64,000 bases of DNA from assembly GCA_020060845.1 (NCBI GenBank), contig JAGUZK010000045.1, positions 8,685-72,684 on the forward strand. Direction: 5' to 3'. Positions 10,384 to 25,421 of the stretch are shown here, one piece after another. This DNA comes from Candidatus Woesebacteria bacterium. Lineage in GTDB: Bacteria > Patescibacteriota > Microgenomatia > UBA8517. The notes beneath the pieces are model-generated. The model had not been told where the DNA came from, ran no database searches, and was given only the letters and a program-made list of their open reading frames with translations. How positions within the stretch are numbered: the stretch's first letter is position 1; every line of letters starts with the position of its first letter. A program made the translations under genes and the position numbers.

Positions 10384-11487
10384 TTAACTTCCAATCTTGA
10401 ATTCGACCACATCCCCATCCCTCATAACATAGTCTCGACCTTCGCTTCTTACCATCCCCTTCTCCCTTGCCCTGACCCAACCTTTCGCTTCTACAAACTT
10501 TTCAAAATCGACAACATCAGCCTTTATAAATTTCTTTTCAAAGTCACTATGGATTACTCCCGCTGCCACGCTTGCTTTTGTACCACTCCTGATAGTCCAT
10601 GCCCTTACCTCTTTTTCTCCAGCTGTCAAAAAAGTTATTAGCCCCAACGTCTTGAAAGCCTTTTTGATAAGCCTTTCAAGACCAGATTCTTTAATCCCTA
10701 TATCAGCCAGATAAGCTCTTTGGTCACTCTCAGATAAACTTGCAAGATCAGATTCAATTTTTGCGCATATTGCAACGACTTGAGACAATTCAAGATTAAA
10801 TTTCTTCGAATATTCAAACTCAATCTTGTTTGCATCGCGAAGATTTGACTCATCAACATTTAGGCAAACTATGATAGGTTTAACAGTAATTAGAGAAAGT
10901 AAATTAGCAACTTTGAGCTCCTTGTCCGATAAAACCATATCACGCACCGGCACACCACGAGACAAAGCATCCTTAAGTTTTGTCACTACTTCCCAAAAAG
11001 ACAGCGCTTCCTTATCTTGGGTATTACCAGGCGATTTTTGCTTCTCTAGCGTTTGAAGGTCTGCAAGCTTAAGCTCCGTCTCAACAGCCTCAAAATCTTC
11101 CTCCGGAGACGCTACTCCCTGTTTGACAACATCCGGATCCGAAAACATCCTTACAACATGGCAGATAGCCGAAGTCTCTCTTATATGCGCTAAAAACCTG
11201 TTACCCAGCCCCTCTCCCTTTGAAGCTCCAGCAATAAGACCTGCTATATCCACAAACTCAACAGTCGCGGGGATTTTGGGAGGCAGGTGGTCCATATTCT
11301 CCGAATCTTTTACCACCTCAGAAAGCTTATCCAACCGCCAATCGGGTACATCAACAATACCAACATTCGGTTCAATTGTAGCAAATGGAAAGTTTGCAAC
11401 ATACGCTTGCTGACGCTTCAAAAGCGCATTAAAAAGCGTTGACTTTCCTACATTTGGCAAACCAACAATTCCGACCGATAGGTTCAT
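10384..11487 (-). CDS. ychF: ribosome-binding ATPase YchF (Obg-family GTPase)
   Basis: G1 motif GIVGLPNVGKSTLFNAL, with C-terminal TGS domain. Confidence 0.9.
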   Translation of the reverse strand: MNLSVGIVGLPNVGKSTLFNALLKRQQAYVANFPFATIEPNVGIVDVPDWRLDKLSEVVKDSENMDHLPPKIPATVEFVDIAGLIAGASKGEGLGNRFLAHIRETSAICHVVRMFSDPDVVKQGVASPEEDFEAVETELKLADLQTLEKQKSPGNTQDKEALSFWEVVTKLKDALSRGVPVRDMVLSDKELKVANLLSLITVKPIIVCLNVDESNLRDANKIEFEYSKKFNLELSQVVAICAKIESDLASLSESDQRAYLADIGIKESGLERLIKKAFKTLGLITFLTAGEKEVRAWTIRSGTKASVAAGVIHSDFEKKFIKADVVDFEKFVEAKGWVRAREKGMVRSEGRDYVMRDGDVVEFKIGS

Positions 11488-13120
11488 GTCCCAACTTTTC
11501 GGTGGAAGTCAGAGCCAGTTGTGGTAGTGGTATGTGACATAAGACTTCTACCTCACTCCTTTCTTTTATAATTACTTTCTCTATTATATCTCGAATGAAG
11601 TTCTTTTTGTCATACAACTTAAGGCTTTTGAGAGTCTTTCTTGCTTCAGCACATAATTCATCAGCCTCAATGTTGACTACTTCGGGTGAGACTCTGGCTT
11701 TTAGCTCCTCTAATTGCCTTTGATATCCCTCTTTCTTTCGTCTGGCTGCCCTTACTAACTCCATATACTGGTCAAACTCCATCACACCTGAACCATAGGC
11801 TTTGGCGTAGCGATTGATTTCTTCTGTCAGTTTGTCGATTTGCTCCTGAATCTTTAATCTCTCTTGGGTATCTGCTGATCGGTTTGCCTGTTCTCGAATC
11901 CATTCCTCAGCGTGCTTTTTAAGGAGCTCTGAATTAGTTAAATGGTTTGTCAATTCTTTCCAGACCAATGCGTCTAAAACTCTGGCATTTACCCCTCCAA
12001 TGTGGCAACGGCGTTGTTCTTTGGGAAAATGGTGTAATCTTTCTTCACAGCGGTAGTAGTAGTGTCCGTTTCTGTTACAACCATCTCCTGCCCTACGGTT
12101 ACCACATCCACACCACAATACCTCTGAGAGAAGATAATCAAACTTTCTGTGCTTCTTAGCATATCTTCGGTTGTATTCCATAATCTCTTGGGCTTTATCG
12201 TATAAAAATCTGTCCTCCATAATTATCGGCACCTTGAAGGGATACCACTCCTCTTTGGGTCGAAGGCGACGGCTATTTTTCTTTACTTTACGATATTTAT
12301 CATTTTTAATCCTAGTTTTAGACTCTACAGCCTCATGCTTATTGTAATAAGCGATTCCTGTCCAGTAGGTTTCGCAACGAAGCATTCTTGTTATCGAACC
12401 TTTCGTCCAAAAATCACTTCTTCTTTTCCTAGGCTTAATACCCAAATCGTATAAACGCCTAATAATACCGTTTATGGATACTCTTTCGATCACAAACCAG
12501 TCAAAAACTAATTTTATTGTCCGTATTTCTTCTTCGTTTCTCTCCCAGTGAGCAGGCGTGGTATCGGTTCTCTTAACATAGTTGTAGCCATACAAGGCAC
12601 TCCCGCTTATGACAACGCCGTTTTTAGCTTTGTAGAGTTTACCTCTCCTGAAGCGCTCGGCTATCTTTACCCTCTCATAATCATGGAAACAGCCCAACAC
12701 ATTTCTCATAAGACCTTGTTCTTCATTTATTGGATTAATATCGTGGAGGGAAATAACTTTGATCCCCGCTTCTTCAAATTCTCTAAGGAGAACAAGCTGA
12801 TATGTAAAATCCCTCGATAGACGACCAATATCATAAACATACAGGACTTGAATTTCCTGTCTTTTAATTGAGTCACGAAGTGCGTCTAAACCTGGTCGAG
12901 CCAACATCGTGCCTGTCCAGCCATTATCAAGAAAGATGTGTTTTTGAGAAAGAATGTTGCCATCAGCTTCAATTCTGCATTTCGTCTCATCAATCTGAGA
13001 TTCTATTGTGGCTTCTTGTTCCTGGCGACCTGTTGAAACTCTAGCATACAAACCCGCAATCAACGATTGCTTAACTCCACCGTTACCTGTATGATTTGTG
13101 TTAGGCAGTAAATCTTCCAT
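11429..13120 (-). CDS. large serine recombinase (resolvase-domain integrase)
   Basis: 563 aa. N-terminal resolvase catalytic domain (YARVSTGRQE...YVYDIGRLSRD), a recombinase domain, Cys-rich zinc-ribbon region (CGCG...C..C) and a coiled-coil. Its last ~59 nt overlap ychF. Confidence 0.85.
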   Translation of the reverse strand: MEDLLPNTNHTGNGGVKQSLIAGLYARVSTGRQEQEATIESQIDETKCRIEADGNILSQKHIFLDNGWTGTMLARPGLDALRDSIKRQEIQVLYVYDIGRLSRDFTYQLVLLREFEEAGIKVISLHDINPINEEQGLMRNVLGCFHDYERVKIAERFRRGKLYKAKNGVVISGSALYGYNYVKRTDTTPAHWERNEEEIRTIKLVFDWFVIERVSINGIIRRLYDLGIKPRKRRSDFWTKGSITRMLRCETYWTGIAYYNKHEAVESKTRIKNDKYRKVKKNSRRLRPKEEWYPFKVPIIMEDRFLYDKAQEIMEYNRRYAKKHRKFDYLLSEVLWCGCGNRRAGDGCNRNGHYYYRCEERLHHFPKEQRRCHIGGVNARVLDALVWKELTNHLTNSELLKKHAEEWIREQANRSADTQERLKIQEQIDKLTEEINRYAKAYGSGVMEFDQYMELVRAARRKKEGYQRQLEELKARVSPEVVNIEADELCAEARKTLKSLKLYDKKNFIRDIIEKVIIKERSEVEVLCHIPLPQLALTSTEKLGHEPIGRNCWFAKCRKVNAF

Positions 13121-17384: not shown

Positions 17385-17506
17385 AACCACCACTGCCTAT
17401 TGGTTAAGATGCCCAACGAGGCTTTTGAAGCTAAATTAAGGTAAACTATGCCACTCCAGGCAGGAAAGTTCCATAAAAGTTAACACGGGAGGCTACTTTC
17501 GGTAAC

Positions 17507-20500
17507 TTATTTAATTCCTTTCTTCATAAGCTGGATGTTTTCATCTGCCCTTTGTTCCTCAAATTTAATGTTGTCATCTAAATACTTTTCATAGCCCTTA
17601 ATAAAAATCTGTAGGGTTGGATTCTTATCTTCCTTCCAGGGTTGAATCTCATCTTTTTTTCGCTTGTAGGCATCCTTCACTCCGTATTCTCCTGTTACTA
17701 CTCCTGTTTGAGAAAGAATGATAAACATTTCGCTTCGATATTCCCTATATAATTTGTTGCCTGTGTTTTGAAGAAATTTCTTAATGAAAGCCTTTGATAC
17801 TTCGTGGAGAAACGGTTCGCCTTTATAAGCTCTCAAAATTGAAAGAACTAAAAGTGCGTTGCGTTTACCACCCTGTTTTATTAAATCTAAAAGATAAGTT
17901 TCTAGCTTGCCGTTAAAAGAGGGAAAAATTGCTCTCAATAGATTACTTGCCTCAAAATGATACAGCCAATCTTTTTCCGAGAACCATTTTAATATCTCTG
18001 TAATTACGACTTTCTCAGATTGAGCCAAGTCTTCCCGAATTTCATGAAAATCTAGTGGAATAGCATCATATCTGTAGCGTTCTTGTGTTTTTAGATGATG
18101 AGTAACTCTCTCAAAGAAGAAACCTATTACTTTTTGAGGATATTTTTTTATAATTGGTTTTAAGATTTCTTCGACATGATAATCCACAGAAGAGTGGAGA
18201 ATTAAACTTTTTAGCACGGTATTGTAATCTTGACTCTTAAATGTCTCCAAAAGAGAATAATCTCTTACCCACAATCTTGTTGCCCAACTATCATCCTTGA
18301 TTTTAATTAACTCCTGCAGTGTTAAGATGAATATTTGCTTAAGTTGATTAGAATCACTATGCTTTTCCATGCAAACACGCAGGATGTTAAACATAGCATT
18401 TTTGTCTTTTGATCCAATTACCTTCTTAAATATCAGATTAAGCAGATCTAAATCTAGAGTATCGGTGTAGGTGAACAAATAACTCAACACAAAAAGGTGC
18501 CTACCTCTTTTTGACCATTCGATCGCCAACTTCTTAGCTAGGGGTTTTTTGCTACTTTCCCATATACCAGCCAGTAAGTGGATAAGGAAAAACTTCATTT
18601 CTTTTTCGTGTTTTGTCAGCAGTTCAATTGCAAATTCTGGTTTATCTTTACCCAGCCTGTGCAGGAAGATATTGAAGTATTGAAACTTGCCAGCATCCAC
18701 ATCTGTATATTCCTTGGCAATAGAGATAATCCTGTTTAACCATTCCTTCCGAGTTTCATCATTGATATTCTGAATAAACTTATTGATCTTGTTTTCTCGT
18801 TGTTCTTTTGCTTTTTTCCAATCCAATTCCTCATCAAACTTATAATCGTAGCCAAAAAAGACTTTGAACATGTTGTATTCTTTATCTGAAGCTATTCTTG
18901 TTTCTAACTCGCTTATCTTAGGAAGTCTATCCTTACCGTATCTTTTAACAAACCAGTGTGCCTGTTCTTCAATCTCTTTAATAAGTTGAGCATCGCTATC
19001 TGGAAATATCGACAAATAAAACTCTATAATTTTATTTGTATCATTTACTACTAAATCTTCTAACTCCTTGCTGTAATTACCTCTACTTGGCGTCCTAGTC
19101 GCCTCGTTTAATGACAGAAGTATTTCTTTTCTAACTTGAACATCTTTTGAGCTTGTATAAAGTTTCTTTAAGATTTCTATTGTGCGTCCCCTTATTTTTT
19201 GAAGTAATTCTGATGGCTTGAGAGAACCAAACGAAATTGTAAATGTCTTATAGTCAGACATTGAATGACCTTCATATTCTGGGTTTAACAACTCTTTGGC
19301 TATTATGTTAATTACTTCTTGATTTTTTATTTTTTTGCTATCGCTCCACTTTTCTAGTTCATCCAAGGTAGTGCCTTGAGCTAGATAACCAATATACTTT
19401 AAGGCATAAAGGTTATATTCAACTAAGGATTTAATCGCTTCGATTGCTTTTTTCCTATACTCTTCTTTCTCGGCAAGGTGCGTAAGCAAATCCAAAACTT
19501 CTTTAGGTTTGTGATATCTTACCTCTTTCAAGAGATCAATAACTTTAAGAATTACATCTTGATTCGATTTTCCCTTAAACTTCCCAAGTTTGCTTTTATA
19601 TTCTTTCTGGGGAAGGGGTTTTGCGTTTATGAGAGCCTTAGAAATCTTAATAACCTGGTCTGGAACTCGGAATGCGTATTGTTCAAGTATCTCTAAATTG
19701 GCACAAATATCATCATTGTTAGTCGGAGTTTTTGTAATAAAATTAAGTAATCCTATTGACTCTTTTTGTAAGAATTTGGTTGCCTGTTCTGTCTTAGCAA
19801 GTTGTTCTCGTATACGAGCCTTTTCCTCTTTCGAATCAAAGAAGCTATCTATATGCTCAGGTGAGGTATCGCTAATCAGTTCGAGGAGAGACTCCATGCC
19901 TATTTGTTCATTTTCAACAAGATACAAATTGGGTGTGCTGATAATTATCTCCTTATCTAATAATTTTTGGATAATTACGGTAATTTCTTCTTCTGATACT
20001 CTTAATATCTTGCTAAATATGGCAGCCACTTTTCCTTTAGGTATGGCTCTAATAAGATAAAGAAGCCCTACGCATTTAACTGTATTTTCTTCAAATGATC
20101 TCGCTAGGTCTGTTAGCGACTCACTCAACTCACGATAACTTTGACTCTTTGCAAATTGCTGCCATCGTCCATTTAGCTCACTGGAGTTATCTCCAATTTC
20201 CCTACCTGTCAAGTCAAGTGTCCTTCCTTTTGTGTCCGAGTGGAGTTTTAAGGATTTTTTTGTTTTCTCATCAAAAAAGAACCAATATGTTTTTTGAGCG
20301 GTTGTATCCACAACAAAAAGTAGGGTTGGAACACTGGAGTTAACAAGATAATCTATAACTGACCGCTTGCAGAAGTATTTGTTGTTCTTAATAGATTTTT
20401 TACTCTTTTGTTGGTAGTGGAGGTATTTCTCTAAATATCTTCCCCTGCCGTCCCTTAGGCGGATTTCTCCGTCAATATCTGGAGTTTTACCGTTAAACGG

Positions 20501-20590
20501 ATTTACTGAAAAATATGACTCGTCGAGAGAGGTCTGAAGAATTTTGCTACCCTTTTCATCAATCGTGTCTTGTTGAGTATATTTGCTCAT
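17507..20590 (-). CDS. large protein: DUF4365-like PD-(D/E)xK N-terminal domain + long alpha-helical (HEAT-like) repeat region; last gene of the Type III R-M operon
   Basis: 1027 aa. The N-terminal ~130 aa (PDIDGEIRLRDG...YLHYQQKS) match my recollection of the DUF4365 nuclease-fold pattern (DxD...QxK). The rest is helical with no NTPase motif. It starts 7 nt downstream of res. Confidence 0.6.
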   Translation of the reverse strand: MSKYTQQDTIDEKGSKILQTSLDESYFSVNPFNGKTPDIDGEIRLRDGRGRYLEKYLHYQQKSKKSIKNNKYFCKRSVIDYLVNSSVPTLLFVVDTTAQKTYWFFFDEKTKKSLKLHSDTKGRTLDLTGREIGDNSSELNGRWQQFAKSQSYRELSESLTDLARSFEENTVKCVGLLYLIRAIPKGKVAAIFSKILRVSEEEITVIIQKLLDKEIIISTPNLYLVENEQIGMESLLELISDTSPEHIDSFFDSKEEKARIREQLAKTEQATKFLQKESIGLLNFITKTPTNNDDICANLEILEQYAFRVPDQVIKISKALINAKPLPQKEYKSKLGKFKGKSNQDVILKVIDLLKEVRYHKPKEVLDLLTHLAEKEEYRKKAIEAIKSLVEYNLYALKYIGYLAQGTTLDELEKWSDSKKIKNQEVINIIAKELLNPEYEGHSMSDYKTFTISFGSLKPSELLQKIRGRTIEILKKLYTSSKDVQVRKEILLSLNEATRTPSRGNYSKELEDLVVNDTNKIIEFYLSIFPDSDAQLIKEIEEQAHWFVKRYGKDRLPKISELETRIASDKEYNMFKVFFGYDYKFDEELDWKKAKEQRENKINKFIQNINDETRKEWLNRIISIAKEYTDVDAGKFQYFNIFLHRLGKDKPEFAIELLTKHEKEMKFFLIHLLAGIWESSKKPLAKKLAIEWSKRGRHLFVLSYLFTYTDTLDLDLLNLIFKKVIGSKDKNAMFNILRVCMEKHSDSNQLKQIFILTLQELIKIKDDSWATRLWVRDYSLLETFKSQDYNTVLKSLILHSSVDYHVEEILKPIIKKYPQKVIGFFFERVTHHLKTQERYRYDAIPLDFHEIREDLAQSEKVVITEILKWFSEKDWLYHFEASNLLRAIFPSFNGKLETYLLDLIKQGGKRNALLVLSILRAYKGEPFLHEVSKAFIKKFLQNTGNKLYREYRSEMFIILSQTGVVTGEYGVKDAYKRKKDEIQPWKEDKNPTLQIFIKGYEKYLDDNIKFEEQRADENIQLMKKGIK

Positions 20591-20597
20591 TTCTCAT

Positions 20598-22916
20598 TCA
20601 ATTGACTGTATATGCGCTACTGATAATAGCGTCAAAACTGTTAATTCTGTTTACTGCCGTATGGGGCAAGAGTTTATAGATCCACTTCTTCTTAGTCGCT
20701 TCAGAGGCTATCTTGCACCATTCTTCTGCCTGCTTTGCCTTTTCCAAAACCTCTGGGTCTTTTTTGTCGAGTTTGCTTTTGTCTTTTACTTCTACCAAGT
20801 AATTGGCATCTTTTCTCTCGACAATAAAATCTGGGTTATAGTTGCCGTAAATATACTTAATTGGTAGTTGTCCGTTTCTAAGCCTTACCCAACTAATAAC
20901 TGTTTTGTCTTTCTCTAAGGAATCTGCTAGTAGTTTCTCTTGTGTCGAATCAAAAACATAAGCAGGGTAAACACTTTTGTTATAACCCTCGATGATATTG
21001 CCTCTAGACTCAGTTTCGCTTACTTCGTCTTTATTTAATGGCACTGCTGAGGCTTTTACCACTTTCATGTATGGCTCAAAAGGAATTTCTTCATCCACCA
21101 CTTGATACTCAATCCTTGTTTGCTCATCCAGCTTTTCTCGCAGCTGGGGTAAGATATCATTCAGAATTGTCTGCTCATGCAGTTTTACGAGTTCCGATAG
21201 TTCTTTCCCTTTAACTTGAAGTTGATCGAGATAATGTTTAACTAATCTTTGCAAGACAGCCTTGAAAGAAATATCAAATTCAGACATCTCAAGTAGAATG
21301 AGTCTAACAATCCTATTAACTGGATTAATTTCTTCCTTTACTTCGATGTCTCCTGCTTCTTCTGTTTGCCTGGAAACAATATCTGCTTTAATAAGTTTTG
21401 GTTTAATTTTCTTTAACTCCTCTAGGCGCAACTTTATTGGAAAGAACTCCAATTTATTGCTTGAATATACTCTTGCTTCAACAGATGGAATTTTAATCCA
21501 AAGTTTTTTGTTTTCAATTGGCTTAATTTCAACTGTTTTTAATTCCTCTTTCTTTTCTGCCTTTTTAACCCCAAGCCCTTCTGCTACTTCATGGGCAACT
21601 GCCACCACTCTGGCAAAATTGTCGTGAGAGATAATATCCAGGGAATCCAGCTCTTCAACGCCCGTTAGCTCGCCAAAGGGCAATCTAAGCCCCCTACCAA
21701 TGGTTTGCTCGATAAGAGTCCTACTGATTGAGGCCCTGAAGGGGATGATGGTATAGACATTTTTAACATCCCAGCCTTCTTTGAGTTTGTCCACATGAAT
21801 GACAATCTCATTTTTATTAACTGGGAATGGTTCTTCTAAACGGAGCAGTTGATGAATAGAGTCAACTTCACTTTCGCTAGTTACCAATAGTGTTTTATCC
21901 TTGTAATAGCCATCAAAGAAATCGTCACTTTCAACCATTGTTTTAACATCTTTGGCGTGTTGGATGTTTCTAGTCGTTATAAGGGTGATGGGCAATACAA
22001 AGGGGAGTTTGTTATTTTTACAGTATTCTTCGATTAAAGCCTTCTTTTCTCTGTGCCTTCTTATTCCATCCTCAAGTTTGACTAGTTCGAGGTCGCCTTT
22101 ATAGGTATAGTCATCGCTTCGAGCTATGACATAAGGAATTTTGATGTAACCGCCTTTAGCGCCGTTACCGTCATGTAAGCTCGCCAAAGCCTTTTTAGAA
22201 TCGTTTATAGCGTCTGCCAGTGTATAAGAATAGACAACATTGTTCTCGTTGGCTGGTGTAGCCGTGAACTCCAGTCCTAGTTCTGGTTTCAGATGGTTTA
22301 TTGCCTTGATTGACTTTACCCCTCGATAACGGTGACTTTCATCCATTAAAATAACTAGATCTTTTTGTTGGAGAAGTTCAGCAAAGCTCGATCCTAGAGT
22401 TTCTTGATAGCGGTGAAATCTAAACTCAACATCAGTTCGTTCATTGAAAATCTTTTGGATGTTGAAGACATAAATGTTAACCGCATCAAAAAGCTGGTTG
22501 CCAAAGTTAGCGTAGGTGTAATTTTCACCTGTGATTAAATTAAACATCGGAAAGTCGGTTAAACCGTCTAGGACATATTTTTTACTCGAAGGAGTAAAGT
22601 TGTCGATTGTTTTTGTATAAATTGTTTCTCCTGGAGTTAGAATAAAGAAATCTTTTAATCCCTTCGTGTAGTAAAGATAAGCGATCATTGCAGCCATTAG
22701 CCTGGTTTTGCCCACGCCTGTTGCTAGCGCAAATGTGAATGAAGGAAATTCAGTATCAAATTTGATATTACCAACTAATCTTGCCTCAATATCTTCAAGT
22801 TTATCTTTGCCGAGCTTTATTCCTGAGATGATTGAGTCAAGTTTAACAAGAGAAAGTTCTTGAGGCTTTCTTAAACTTAATTCCTTAGTTAATTTTTCGA
22901 TAATGTTCATACTCAT
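20598..22916 (-). CDS. res: Type III restriction enzyme Res subunit
   Basis: 772 aa. SF2 helicase motifs (ATGVGKTR, DEAH-like MDESHRY) and a C-terminal PD-(D/E)xK motif (PDFIV...LVEVKD). Confidence 0.85.
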   Translation of the reverse strand: MSMNIIEKLTKELSLRKPQELSLVKLDSIISGIKLGKDKLEDIEARLVGNIKFDTEFPSFTFALATGVGKTRLMAAMIAYLYYTKGLKDFFILTPGETIYTKTIDNFTPSSKKYVLDGLTDFPMFNLITGENYTYANFGNQLFDAVNIYVFNIQKIFNERTDVEFRFHRYQETLGSSFAELLQQKDLVILMDESHRYRGVKSIKAINHLKPELGLEFTATPANENNVVYSYTLADAINDSKKALASLHDGNGAKGGYIKIPYVIARSDDYTYKGDLELVKLEDGIRRHREKKALIEEYCKNNKLPFVLPITLITTRNIQHAKDVKTMVESDDFFDGYYKDKTLLVTSESEVDSIHQLLRLEEPFPVNKNEIVIHVDKLKEGWDVKNVYTIIPFRASISRTLIEQTIGRGLRLPFGELTGVEELDSLDIISHDNFARVVAVAHEVAEGLGVKKAEKKEELKTVEIKPIENKKLWIKIPSVEARVYSSNKLEFFPIKLRLEELKKIKPKLIKADIVSRQTEEAGDIEVKEEINPVNRIVRLILLEMSEFDISFKAVLQRLVKHYLDQLQVKGKELSELVKLHEQTILNDILPQLREKLDEQTRIEYQVVDEEIPFEPYMKVVKASAVPLNKDEVSETESRGNIIEGYNKSVYPAYVFDSTQEKLLADSLEKDKTVISWVRLRNGQLPIKYIYGNYNPDFIVERKDANYLVEVKDKSKLDKKDPEVLEKAKQAEEWCKIASEATKKKWIYKLLPHTAVNRINSFDAIISSAYTVN

Positions 22917-24580
22917 ACTTTAAACTTTTTTAATAAAACATCGGGAATTTTTCTAACTTCGACATTTTCTGGTAACTTAATTTTACTTGATATTGTTTTG
23001 GCATAGATAATAAGATAATCAGCTTTGTCGCCAACTTCTCGCACTATAGCATTTACATAATCCTGACTAAGATATTGTTCAGTTACATGGGCGATAGTTC
23101 TTCCTGAAATACCATGTAGGGCATTATCTGGATTAAGGAGTTTGAACCCTTCAACTTTCAGAACTGCCCGAATAAGATCTCCGTTGTAGACCTTTGGATT
23201 TAGAACCGTTAGCCTCAAATCATCATCGGCTACAAATAGACTGTCTCCCAGCTCAAAATATTTGAAACCGCCCCCACCTTTCCATCCAACTTCTTTACTG
23301 ATACCGCTTTGATCTTCTCCTGAAATCACTCTTTTCAAGCGGGGGATGATATGAGTTTTTGCATGCTCACCCAACTCTACCATTATCCATTTCCTACCCA
23401 TCTTATGAGCTACTGCACCCGTTGTGCCTGAACCTGCAAAACTATCCAAAACAATATCTCCTGGTTTTGTAGCCAATTCTATAATTAATTTGATTAAAGC
23501 CTCTGGTTTTTTGCTCTGCTTAAACTCAACTCCTCCTTCAAGGTGAAGAGCTGCATTTGGGAATTTCCATATGTTCGAAAGTCGCTGTTTTTTGATCAGT
23601 GTTCCATCTTTCTTTTTTTCAACAACTTCTTTTAACCAGGCGACTATACGCCCATTTAGAAAGTAAGTCTTGATAAGTTGCCCTGCATATTTTCCTTTTG
23701 TCGGGATATATTCGATGTAAGACAGTCCTTTTTGGGGTATCTCTGGTCGAATTTGTAAAATTGTCCCACCGCTTGGGTTATAGTCAGCAAAAACATTGTT
23801 AAAATGCTTGTAATAATCATCTATAGAGTCGCTCGTCCTAAACTTCTTGATCTCGTAATTCTCACATTTATATATCTTAATTTCTCCGATATTCAATCTT
23901 TGAATTGTTTTGATAAGTTTTGACTTGCCTGGATTTAATAAGGCTTTGTTATATCCTTTGACAAAACCTTCTATCTCCACTTCTGTCATCGTTTGTAAAG
24001 TACCTTCTTCTCTAAGAAGTTTATAGTCCTTGGCATAAACAAGGATGTATTCACTAACATCAAAAATTAAACTTTGTTGTCCTACTCCAGCCACATCTTT
24101 TACCTGAACTGTAATAAAGGATACAAAATTATCATCTCCAAACTTTTCATCCATAATCATTTTCAATCGAGCGAATTCCCTGGAATCAATATGCACAAAT
24201 ATAAGACCCCTTTTATTTAACAGTTTATGAAGTAAGTCGATTCTATCCCTCATCATTGTCAGCCAAATAGAGTGTTCTAAACCGTCATCATAAAATTCAA
24301 AAGCAGCACCAGTATTAAATGGGGGATCGATATAGATAAGTTTTATCTTTCCTTCATAATCGGGAAGAAGGGCTTTTAACGCTAAAAGATTGTCTCCTTT
24401 TATTAAGATGTTTTCTGTATTTTTATCACCATAGACTGCTTTCTCTAGAAGAATGCGAGGCTCTGAGACCCTGGGGTCTTTTTTATCTACCCATTGATAT
24501 TTTTTCTTTTCAGGATCATAGTAAAGACTTTTGTCTTTGTTATACCAGGTTAATTCTAATTTTTTACTTTTTTGAGACAT
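22913..24580 (-). CDS. mod: Type III DNA methyltransferase Mod subunit (N6-adenine)
   Basis: 555 aa with motif IV IYIDPPFNTG and a SAM-binding region; overlaps res by 4 nt. Confidence 0.85.
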   Translation of the reverse strand: MSQKSKKLELTWYNKDKSLYYDPEKKKYQWVDKKDPRVSEPRILLEKAVYGDKNTENILIKGDNLLALKALLPDYEGKIKLIYIDPPFNTGAAFEFYDDGLEHSIWLTMMRDRIDLLHKLLNKRGLIFVHIDSREFARLKMIMDEKFGDDNFVSFITVQVKDVAGVGQQSLIFDVSEYILVYAKDYKLLREEGTLQTMTEVEIEGFVKGYNKALLNPGKSKLIKTIQRLNIGEIKIYKCENYEIKKFRTSDSIDDYYKHFNNVFADYNPSGGTILQIRPEIPQKGLSYIEYIPTKGKYAGQLIKTYFLNGRIVAWLKEVVEKKKDGTLIKKQRLSNIWKFPNAALHLEGGVEFKQSKKPEALIKLIIELATKPGDIVLDSFAGSGTTGAVAHKMGRKWIMVELGEHAKTHIIPRLKRVISGEDQSGISKEVGWKGGGGFKYFELGDSLFVADDDLRLTVLNPKVYNGDLIRAVLKVEGFKLLNPDNALHGISGRTIAHVTEQYLSQDYVNAIVREVGDKADYLIIYAKTISSKIKLPENVEVRKIPDVLLKKFKV

Positions 24581-24581
24581 A

Positions 24582-25421
24582 TCAATCTTTTACTAAACTT
24601 AATGTTTTAACAAAATCAATGAATTTATAACCAAACTCTGTAAGGAATTCTACTTTGCTAGCACCTGAACCAATACCACCATCTTTTACTCCTACTCTAA
24701 ATATTCCAAGAGATAGAAGCTCACTTGATATTTCAGCATATTGGTTTTGTTTCTTCCGTTCTTCTTCAAACTGTGCCTTACTTAGGTTCTTGTCTTGGGA
24801 GATATTGGGAATTCTTGATTTAACAATCTCGCTATTAGGATTAAATTCTTCATAAATCCAGTGCATGATAACCTCAGAGTCTGGTTTCTGTCTCATAGTA
24901 AGTTCTTCCCACCACTCAACACTACCTTCATGCTTTCCTTTCATCTTAGCTACTTCTTCCTTTGCCCATTTTTCTTTCCTAGGGATAATAACCTCAGATA
25001 TAAACTTTAAATACTCAAGAGATTCTAATGAAATTTCCTGAGCCACTCGATAAAACCTTTCTAGATTTATTAGATGCCTATCTTCTGCTGAAACATAACC
25101 ATCTAGATAAATTTGCTGTATGAGTTTTCTTTTCTTTATTTCTCTGGTTCTTATTAATGCTTCAAAAGTTATTGCTAATGACTGTTGAAATTCTTGAGAG
25201 CTTAATATTTCTTCCTTAAGTTGGGGAACATGTTTTTTTAATAGATTCCAAAATTCTTTACCTTCATCTGGATATAAGTCAAAAAAAGACCAAACTGCAA
25301 CTTTGCAAAAAAATAAAGATCCTCTCGTGTAAGGATTAGGAGGAAGATTTTTCTCTATTTCATCCATTAAAGCTAAAAAAGTATTTTTTGTCACAGCTTT
25401 CAATGTTTTAGATATTTTCAT
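24582..25421 (-). CDS. hypothetical protein (operon member, unknown function)
   Basis: 279 aa, translationally coupled (1-nt gap to mod, 4-nt overlap with HTH gene). Confidence 0.5.
   Translation of the reverse strand: MKISKTLKAVTKNTFLALMDEIEKNLPPNPYTRGSLFFCKVAVWSFFDLYPDEGKEFWNLLKKHVPQLKEEILSSQEFQQSLAITFEALIRTREIKKRKLIQQIYLDGYVSAEDRHLINLERFYRVAQEISLESLEYLKFISEVIIPRKEKWAKEEVAKMKGKHEGSVEWWEELTMRQKPDSEVIMHWIYEEFNPNSEIVKSRIPNISQDKNLSKAQFEEERKKQNQYAEISSELLSLGIFRVGVKDGGIGSGASKVEFLTEFGYKFIDFVKTLSLVKD

Follow-up and report, generated by a model that had tools for sequence, protein, structure and literature searches.

A DREN-type nuclease fused to a HEAT-like solenoid and encoded behind a Type III restriction-modification operon is most likely a self-contained defence protein

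Introduction

In the literature searched, mechanistic studies of DREN (DUF4365) nucleases describe them only as effectors of short Argonautes. In SPARDA systems, such as NbaSPARDA, XauSPARDA and TmuRE-Ago, the nuclease is part of a DREN-APAZ protein and acts in a collateral, sequence-nonspecific manner; its catalytic residues are D41, Q60 and K62, and isolated DREN is monomeric and inactive, tetramerisation being required for activity (PMC12205087; bioRxiv 10.1101/2025.04.08.647717). In the short-Argonaute setting, this tetramerisation is forced by filament formation. A nuclease of the same broad fold is found in Olokun, a 2:2 complex of the adaptin-like OloA and the PD-(D/E)xK nuclease OloB, which degrades some phage DNAs and spares E. 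coli and plasmid DNA in vitro (bioRxiv 10.1101/2025.07.10.664194). Large helical repeats also serve as the sensory part of DSR2, in which an N-terminal SIR2 NADase is combined with a HEAT-repeat sensor of the phage tail tube protein. Among toxSAS proteins, CapRel is much shorter (about 370 aa) and carries a small pseudo-ZFD antitoxin domain. Finally, PrrC-EcoprrI is a precedent for a guard of a restriction-modification (R-M) system, PrrC-type anticodon nucleases being AAA_13-type ATPases. Here, we describe a gene located behind a Type III R-M operon, for which the sequence indicates a fusion of a DREN nuclease with a HEAT-like body.

Results

The gene was found in a window of 64,000 nucleotides, i.e., the whole stretch of DNA analysed, as an ATG-initiated open reading frame of 1027 aa plus stop at positions 17507..20590. 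The ORF list and its translation place it on the minus strand, which the preliminary description had not given. In this translation, the N-terminal motifs PDIDGEIRLRDG and YLHYQQKS correspond to aa 37-48 and 56-63, respectively. The order DREN, winged helix and HEAT-like body, also seen in the AF2 model, is shared by 45 full-length homologues (34-87% identity), which excludes a chance ORF. Upstream, the res stop codon (TGA, 20600-20598) is followed by the seven bases ATGAGAA and then by the ATG of the gene at 20590, so that the 7-nt distance initially reported is confirmed in the sequence; called gene coordinates give the same spacing at a related locus, L010. The res gene (20598..22916, minus strand) encodes a 772-aa protein with a ResIII helicase and a C-terminal endonuclease domain (Pfam ResIII, E 3.5e-21; RE_endonuc, 4.4e-7; PADLOC REase_III, 5.7e-86). 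Its start overlaps by 4 nt the end of mod (22913..24580, minus strand; 555 aa; Pfam N6_N4_Mtase, 5.7e-41; PADLOC MTase_III, 2.1e-120). No terminator-like site was found in the sequence between mod, res and the DREN-body gene, and res, its upstream neighbour, is probably co-transcribed with it. According to the blastn boundaries against L001 and L010, mod is the first gene of a conserved 7.2-kb block (17407-24591), which is kept as a unit at 99.9 and 82% nucleotide identity, respectively. Comparison with the same two loci shows that the slot immediately upstream of mod is variable: it is occupied in the window, after a 1-nt gap, by orf279 (24582..25421, minus strand), for which no match was obtained in Pfam, NCBIfam, PADLOC or the PDB, by HTH_17 and HEPN_AbiU2 genes in L001, and by neither of these two in L010. 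In the window, orf279, mod, res and the DREN-body gene have the same orientation, and from the sequence they can be read as a single transcription unit ending with the DREN-body gene.

The head of the protein (aa 1-146; 20153..20590, minus strand) matches Pfam DUF4365 (PF14280) at aa 39-111 (E 1.2e-9; 38.7 bits for a cut-off of 24.3), and precomputed matches to this family exist for 45 of 45 homologues. The PADLOC model of pAgo-associated REases (Aga_REase) is matched at aa 2-109 (E 1.4e-9), over positions 3-114 only of the 429 of the model. When the PDB was searched by structure with the head, the best 15 matches were all SPARDA DREN chains; searches by sequence, using the N-terminal 150 aa, the family profile or a mixed 50-member profile, gave a marginal DUF4365 match only (9qbq, E 0.039). 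In the AF2 model, the catalytic residues map to strands 41-46 and 52-64, with D40 on beta2 and Q60 and K62 on beta3. They are equivalent to D41, Q60 and K62 of SPARDA, the catalytic positions in TmuRE being Q62 and K64. Besides, D40 and Q60 are invariant among 34 homologues and K62 is conserved in at least 90%. At the level of residue conservation and of the predicted structure, the head is thus shown to have the DREN fold with an intact D-Q-K catalytic triad. This bears out the PD-(D/E)xK-like DUF4365 N-terminus proposed in the preliminary description, and the fold, whose absence had been named as a ground for abandoning the proposal, was recovered by the structure search.

Downstream of the head, aa 147-245 (19856..20152, minus strand) form a long helix (152-180) followed by a winged helix (~185-241), as indicated by the secondary structure of the model and by Foldseek, in which this region matched MarR/PadR/CAP-type wHTH proteins as well as DpnI, a nuclease with a winged helix. 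Six positions are invariant (L177, L179, K185, L196, L210 and T219), and the domain is kept in a split, 870-aa variant at L041. It is possibly a DNA-binding or dimerisation element. The remainder (aa 246-1027; 17510..19855, minus strand) consists of a neck and a HEAT/adaptin-like alpha-solenoid body, a module common to several architectures. Indeed, the AF2 model (mean pLDDT 87.7) is helical after the nuclease, and in structure comparison the body matched solely HEAT/ARM/adaptin solenoids. The solenoid contains two conserved beta-hairpins (aa 330-339 and 438-456), the latter with the element EGHSxxDYKTFT, and a conserved Gly-rich loop, TGVVxGEYG (aa 962-970). The roughly 900 aa of helical repeats first described are therefore correct as regards a HEAT-like solenoid, but aa ~150-245 belong to the long helix and winged helix, and the solenoid itself includes the two hairpins.

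Conservation along the body is even, and its profile reveals no hypervariable surface of the kind seen in many phage-protein sensors. Instead, invariant Arg, Trp and Gly-loop positions are present, which could reflect a ligand-binding or enzymatic role rather than simple protein sensing. The body may bind nucleic acid or a small ligand through these positions, and not a phage protein. As stated at the outset, the protein has no Walker motif: Walker A ([AG]xxxxGK[ST]) is absent, and no P-loop family was matched in Pfam, NCBIfam or PADLOC. A STAND/Avs-type NTPase sensor was rejected, as there is no Walker A/B module between effector and repeats. Sequence searches of the PDB with the family profile and the mixed 50-member profile returned no solved homologue of the body, and no NCBIfam model covers the window protein or the bodies of its head-less, PIN-linked and RelA-type relatives.

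Searching with the full-length profile gave matches in 1750 clusters at E<=1e-3 and in 796 clusters (50% identity) at E<=1e-30; a second homologue search, based on a 146-member alignment, added nothing to the DREN-class proteins already obtained. Among the top 146 representatives, 27 carry a DREN head, 45 carry a head of one other family, and 72, some of them fragments, carry none. The second head family could be assigned, since five of six sampled members match Pfam RelA_SpoT (PF04607); these relatives also match PADLOC PDC-S33. They were compared with PANGU (toxSAS + NAP), which was rejected because the architecture differs. The DREN protein of L007 and the RelA/SpoT protein of L050 have bodies 79% identical over 753 aa and unrelated heads, and at L025 both types lie in tandem with bodies that are 68% identical. 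Head-less bodies are directly preceded by a PIN_12 gene in five of the six loci examined. At L041, L044 and L045, the gene for winged helix and body shares 10 nt with a distinct ORF of 230 aa that has a D...ECK motif, such split REase-like two-gene versions being present only in relatives. On the Rhizobium plasmid pC6.5d, RelA_SpoT, body and Gamma_PGA_hydro make up a single protein. These comparisons show that the body is a widespread module in its own right, which is associated with DREN or RelA/SpoT in cis and with PIN_12 or REase-like partners in trans, and that heads have been exchanged recently between nearly identical bodies.

Homologues occur in MAGs of Firmicutes, Bacteroidetes, Moranbacteria and Pirellulales, and on plasmids of Cyanobacteria, Legionella, Sphingobium and Rhizobium. 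Their neighbours include AbiEii, GmrSD, HEPN, DUF4238, HNH and AAA_13 genes, MmeI-like methyltransferases (MTases) with a PLD-SNF2 helicase, serine recombinases and integrases. Across many phyla, the family is therefore located in integrative elements and defence islands, the latter being where the preliminary description placed such nuclease domains. No relative was found when 50,697 phage records and IMG/VR were searched. The homologue of L004 stands by itself, flanked by genes for a GNAT acetyltransferase and an M16 peptidase, and an ammonium transporter is encoded close by. In a clade of 42% identity, the gene lies behind a module of PLD-SNF2 helicase and MmeI-like MTase (9 loci), and AAA_13 proteins are encoded upstream of it. 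A common upstream partner was also sought; the ORFs of 336 aa (L007), 309 aa (L008) and 243 aa (L011) have no Pfam or PADLOC match, and by tblastn none of them matched the locus of another. The 336-aa ORF, which overlaps the upstream MmeI-like MTase gene of L007 by 4 nt, was rejected as a partner because it recurs in one clade only.

Res homologues next to the gene are confined to L001, L010 and L019, i.e., to the window's own lineage, which amounts to one of the 14 DREN-class clusters (70% identity) with at least 1 kb of upstream sequence. The orthologue of L009 (87% aa identity) has kept an intact 1027-aa ORF but has lost mod and res, except for the last ~48 nt of res. These observations show that adjacency to mod-res is lineage-specific and that the family occurs independently of Type III R-M. 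A third Type III subunit is not supported, as mod and res do not consistently co-occur with the gene across homologues. In the same way, the idea of a specificity or regulatory partner of the Type III enzyme finds no support in view of the single Res-associated cluster, of L009 and L004, and of the endonuclease domain that Res itself possesses. The preliminary description would have been weakened by homologues unrelated to R-M loci, and this is largely what was found with respect to Res; its nuclease fold is unaffected. The tight packing kept in L010 at 82% nucleotide identity, and a second clade located behind an MmeI-like MTase and PLD-SNF2 helicase, nevertheless leave room for a degree of functional coupling to systems of the R-M type. 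For annotation, this calls for caution, since a gene packed behind mod and res need not be an R-M subunit.

Discussion

From these results, the most likely role of the protein is self-contained defence against phages, rather than that of a component of the adjacent restriction enzyme. We consider it somewhat probable (about 0.6) that it is an autonomous, single-polypeptide sensor-effector in which the body controls a DREN nuclease activated by oligomerisation. The HEAT/adaptin-like body (aa ~250-1027) would be the regulatory, sensing or scaffolding module and the DREN head the toxic effector. In the uninfected cell, the head would be held inactive, much as isolated DREN of SPARDA is monomeric and inactive. 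Binding of a phage-derived cue by the body would then lead to self-association, allowing the heads to form an active tetramer, and the resulting non-specific DNA degradation would kill or arrest the cell and stop phage spread. A role in positioning DNA or in dimerisation is possible for the winged helix. In the window genome, the protein would add a second line of defence to restriction and would not be a restriction subunit. Among the three functions first put forward, an Abi-type effector would thus fit best.

Several described systems resemble the protein in part. The protein shares with the SPARDA DREN-APAZ proteins the DUF4365 family, the fold and the triad (D40/Q60/K62, for D41/Q60/K62 in Nba) and, likely, the logic of an enzyme that is inactive on its own and switched on by clustering. 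Unlike them, it has no APAZ domain: aa 146 is followed by the winged helix and a ~780-aa solenoid, and no Piwi or Argonaute match was obtained in any ORF scanned between 9548 and 31434. Because the regulatory part is this fused winged helix and solenoid, pairing of a guide RNA with target DNA cannot be the cue. DSR2 is similar in size (~1000 aa), in its N-terminal toxic enzyme and C-terminal solenoid, in the lack of an NTPase and in being a single gene; its hallmarks, an N-terminal SIR2 NADase and the homology of its HEAT-like sensor, are not found in the window protein. CapRel resembles the sister proteins, in which a RelA/SpoT-type head is joined to a C-terminal part for regulation and sensing, whereas in the window protein this part consists of a solenoid of ~780 aa and the head is a nuclease, not a toxSAS. 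In Olokun, too, a PD-(D/E)xK nuclease is paired with an adaptin/HEAT-like solenoid, and this system resembles the two-gene relatives made of a REase-like or PIN_12 ORF and a body. The PADLOC OloA model matches the body of L015 (E 3.1e-7) and, overall, five of 50 family members (best 5.3e-9), with no match to the window protein at E<=0.01; two of 50 members match PDC-M02A. In contrast to Olokun, the window protein is one fused ORF with a DUF4365/DREN head and an extra winged helix, its body has ~780 aa for an OloA model of 596 positions, and its family also uses RelA/SpoT heads.

An alternative is an Olokun-like, non-abortive nuclease, in which the body and winged helix would read invading DNA or a DNA-bound phage factor, so that paired DREN heads cut phage DNA and spare the host. 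The weak OloA similarity of relatives, the selective degradation of phage DNAs by the 2:2 Olokun complex and the DpnI-like placement of a winged helix beside a nuclease are consistent with it. However, RelA/SpoT (toxSAS-like) heads and PIN-type partners cannot act by cutting phage DNA, and for a body common to these systems, general control of activation is more probable than the reading of a DNA feature; moreover, DREN of SPARDA is collateral and sequence-nonspecific. We therefore regard direct cutting of phage DNA as unlikely, and to the same degree a PrrC-like guard, i.e., a protein latent under, or monitoring, the Type III Mod and Res, whose nuclease would be freed by phage anti-restriction. 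As proposed for the window protein, PrrC-EcoprrI is a latent toxic nuclease within or behind an R-M operon; PrrC is an ATPase-regulated RNase without homology to the window protein. The guard is favoured by the 7-nt spacing without terminator, by the block kept in L001 and L010, and by the 42%-identity clade, which again follows an R-M-like module and has AAA_13 proteins upstream. Yet R-M adjacency is not conserved in the DREN-body family: L009 has lost mod and res, 13 of the 14 clusters have no Res homologue, L004 has the acetyltransferase and peptidase genes on either side, and on plasmids with no adjacent R-M the same body occurs with PIN_12 partners or RelA/SpoT heads. As the R-M partners differ in type (Type III and MmeI-like), clustering in islands fits better than a specific protein-protein interaction.

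A role outside immunity, either in addiction or maintenance of the serine-recombinase integrative element that carries the gene or in its DNA processing, appears quite improbable. Large serine recombinases are encoded near the gene in the window (11429-13120) and in L008, L009 and L011, integrases in L016 and L082, and the gene is sporadically distributed. Nevertheless, the neighbours are mostly known defence genes, L010 retains the gene although its recombinase element is truncated, L004 has no mobile-element genes nearby, and immune sensors show this same pattern of effectors swapped between nuclease, toxSAS and PIN types. The last function initially offered, an anti-restriction decoy, or an inactive pseudo-nuclease scaffold, is hardly credible: res adjacency and a large solenoid surface are all that suggest it, D40 and Q60 are invariant and K62 nearly so, and the gene is encoded in an island with host R-M and not by a phage, in line with the absence of relatives from the phage records and IMG/VR.

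Beyond the autonomous sensor-effector proposed above, a DREN nuclease hard-wired to an unrelated helical-repeat body, which is also linked to RelA/SpoT and PIN effectors, suggests that a distinct platform for activation exists and is widespread. More tentatively, the body may define a large unnamed superfamily of bacterial immune switches, distantly tied to OloA, with interchangeable heads activated by induced self-assembly, and the window protein would be the first DREN nuclease to work without an Argonaute. If so, DREN tetramerisation would be a general output device captured by unrelated sensors, and the poorly understood Olokun could be linked to a broader class. Natural variants would make the division between sensor and effector directly testable, the experiments already provided by nature being the 79%-identical bodies with different heads, the tandem paralogues, and the fused and split versions.

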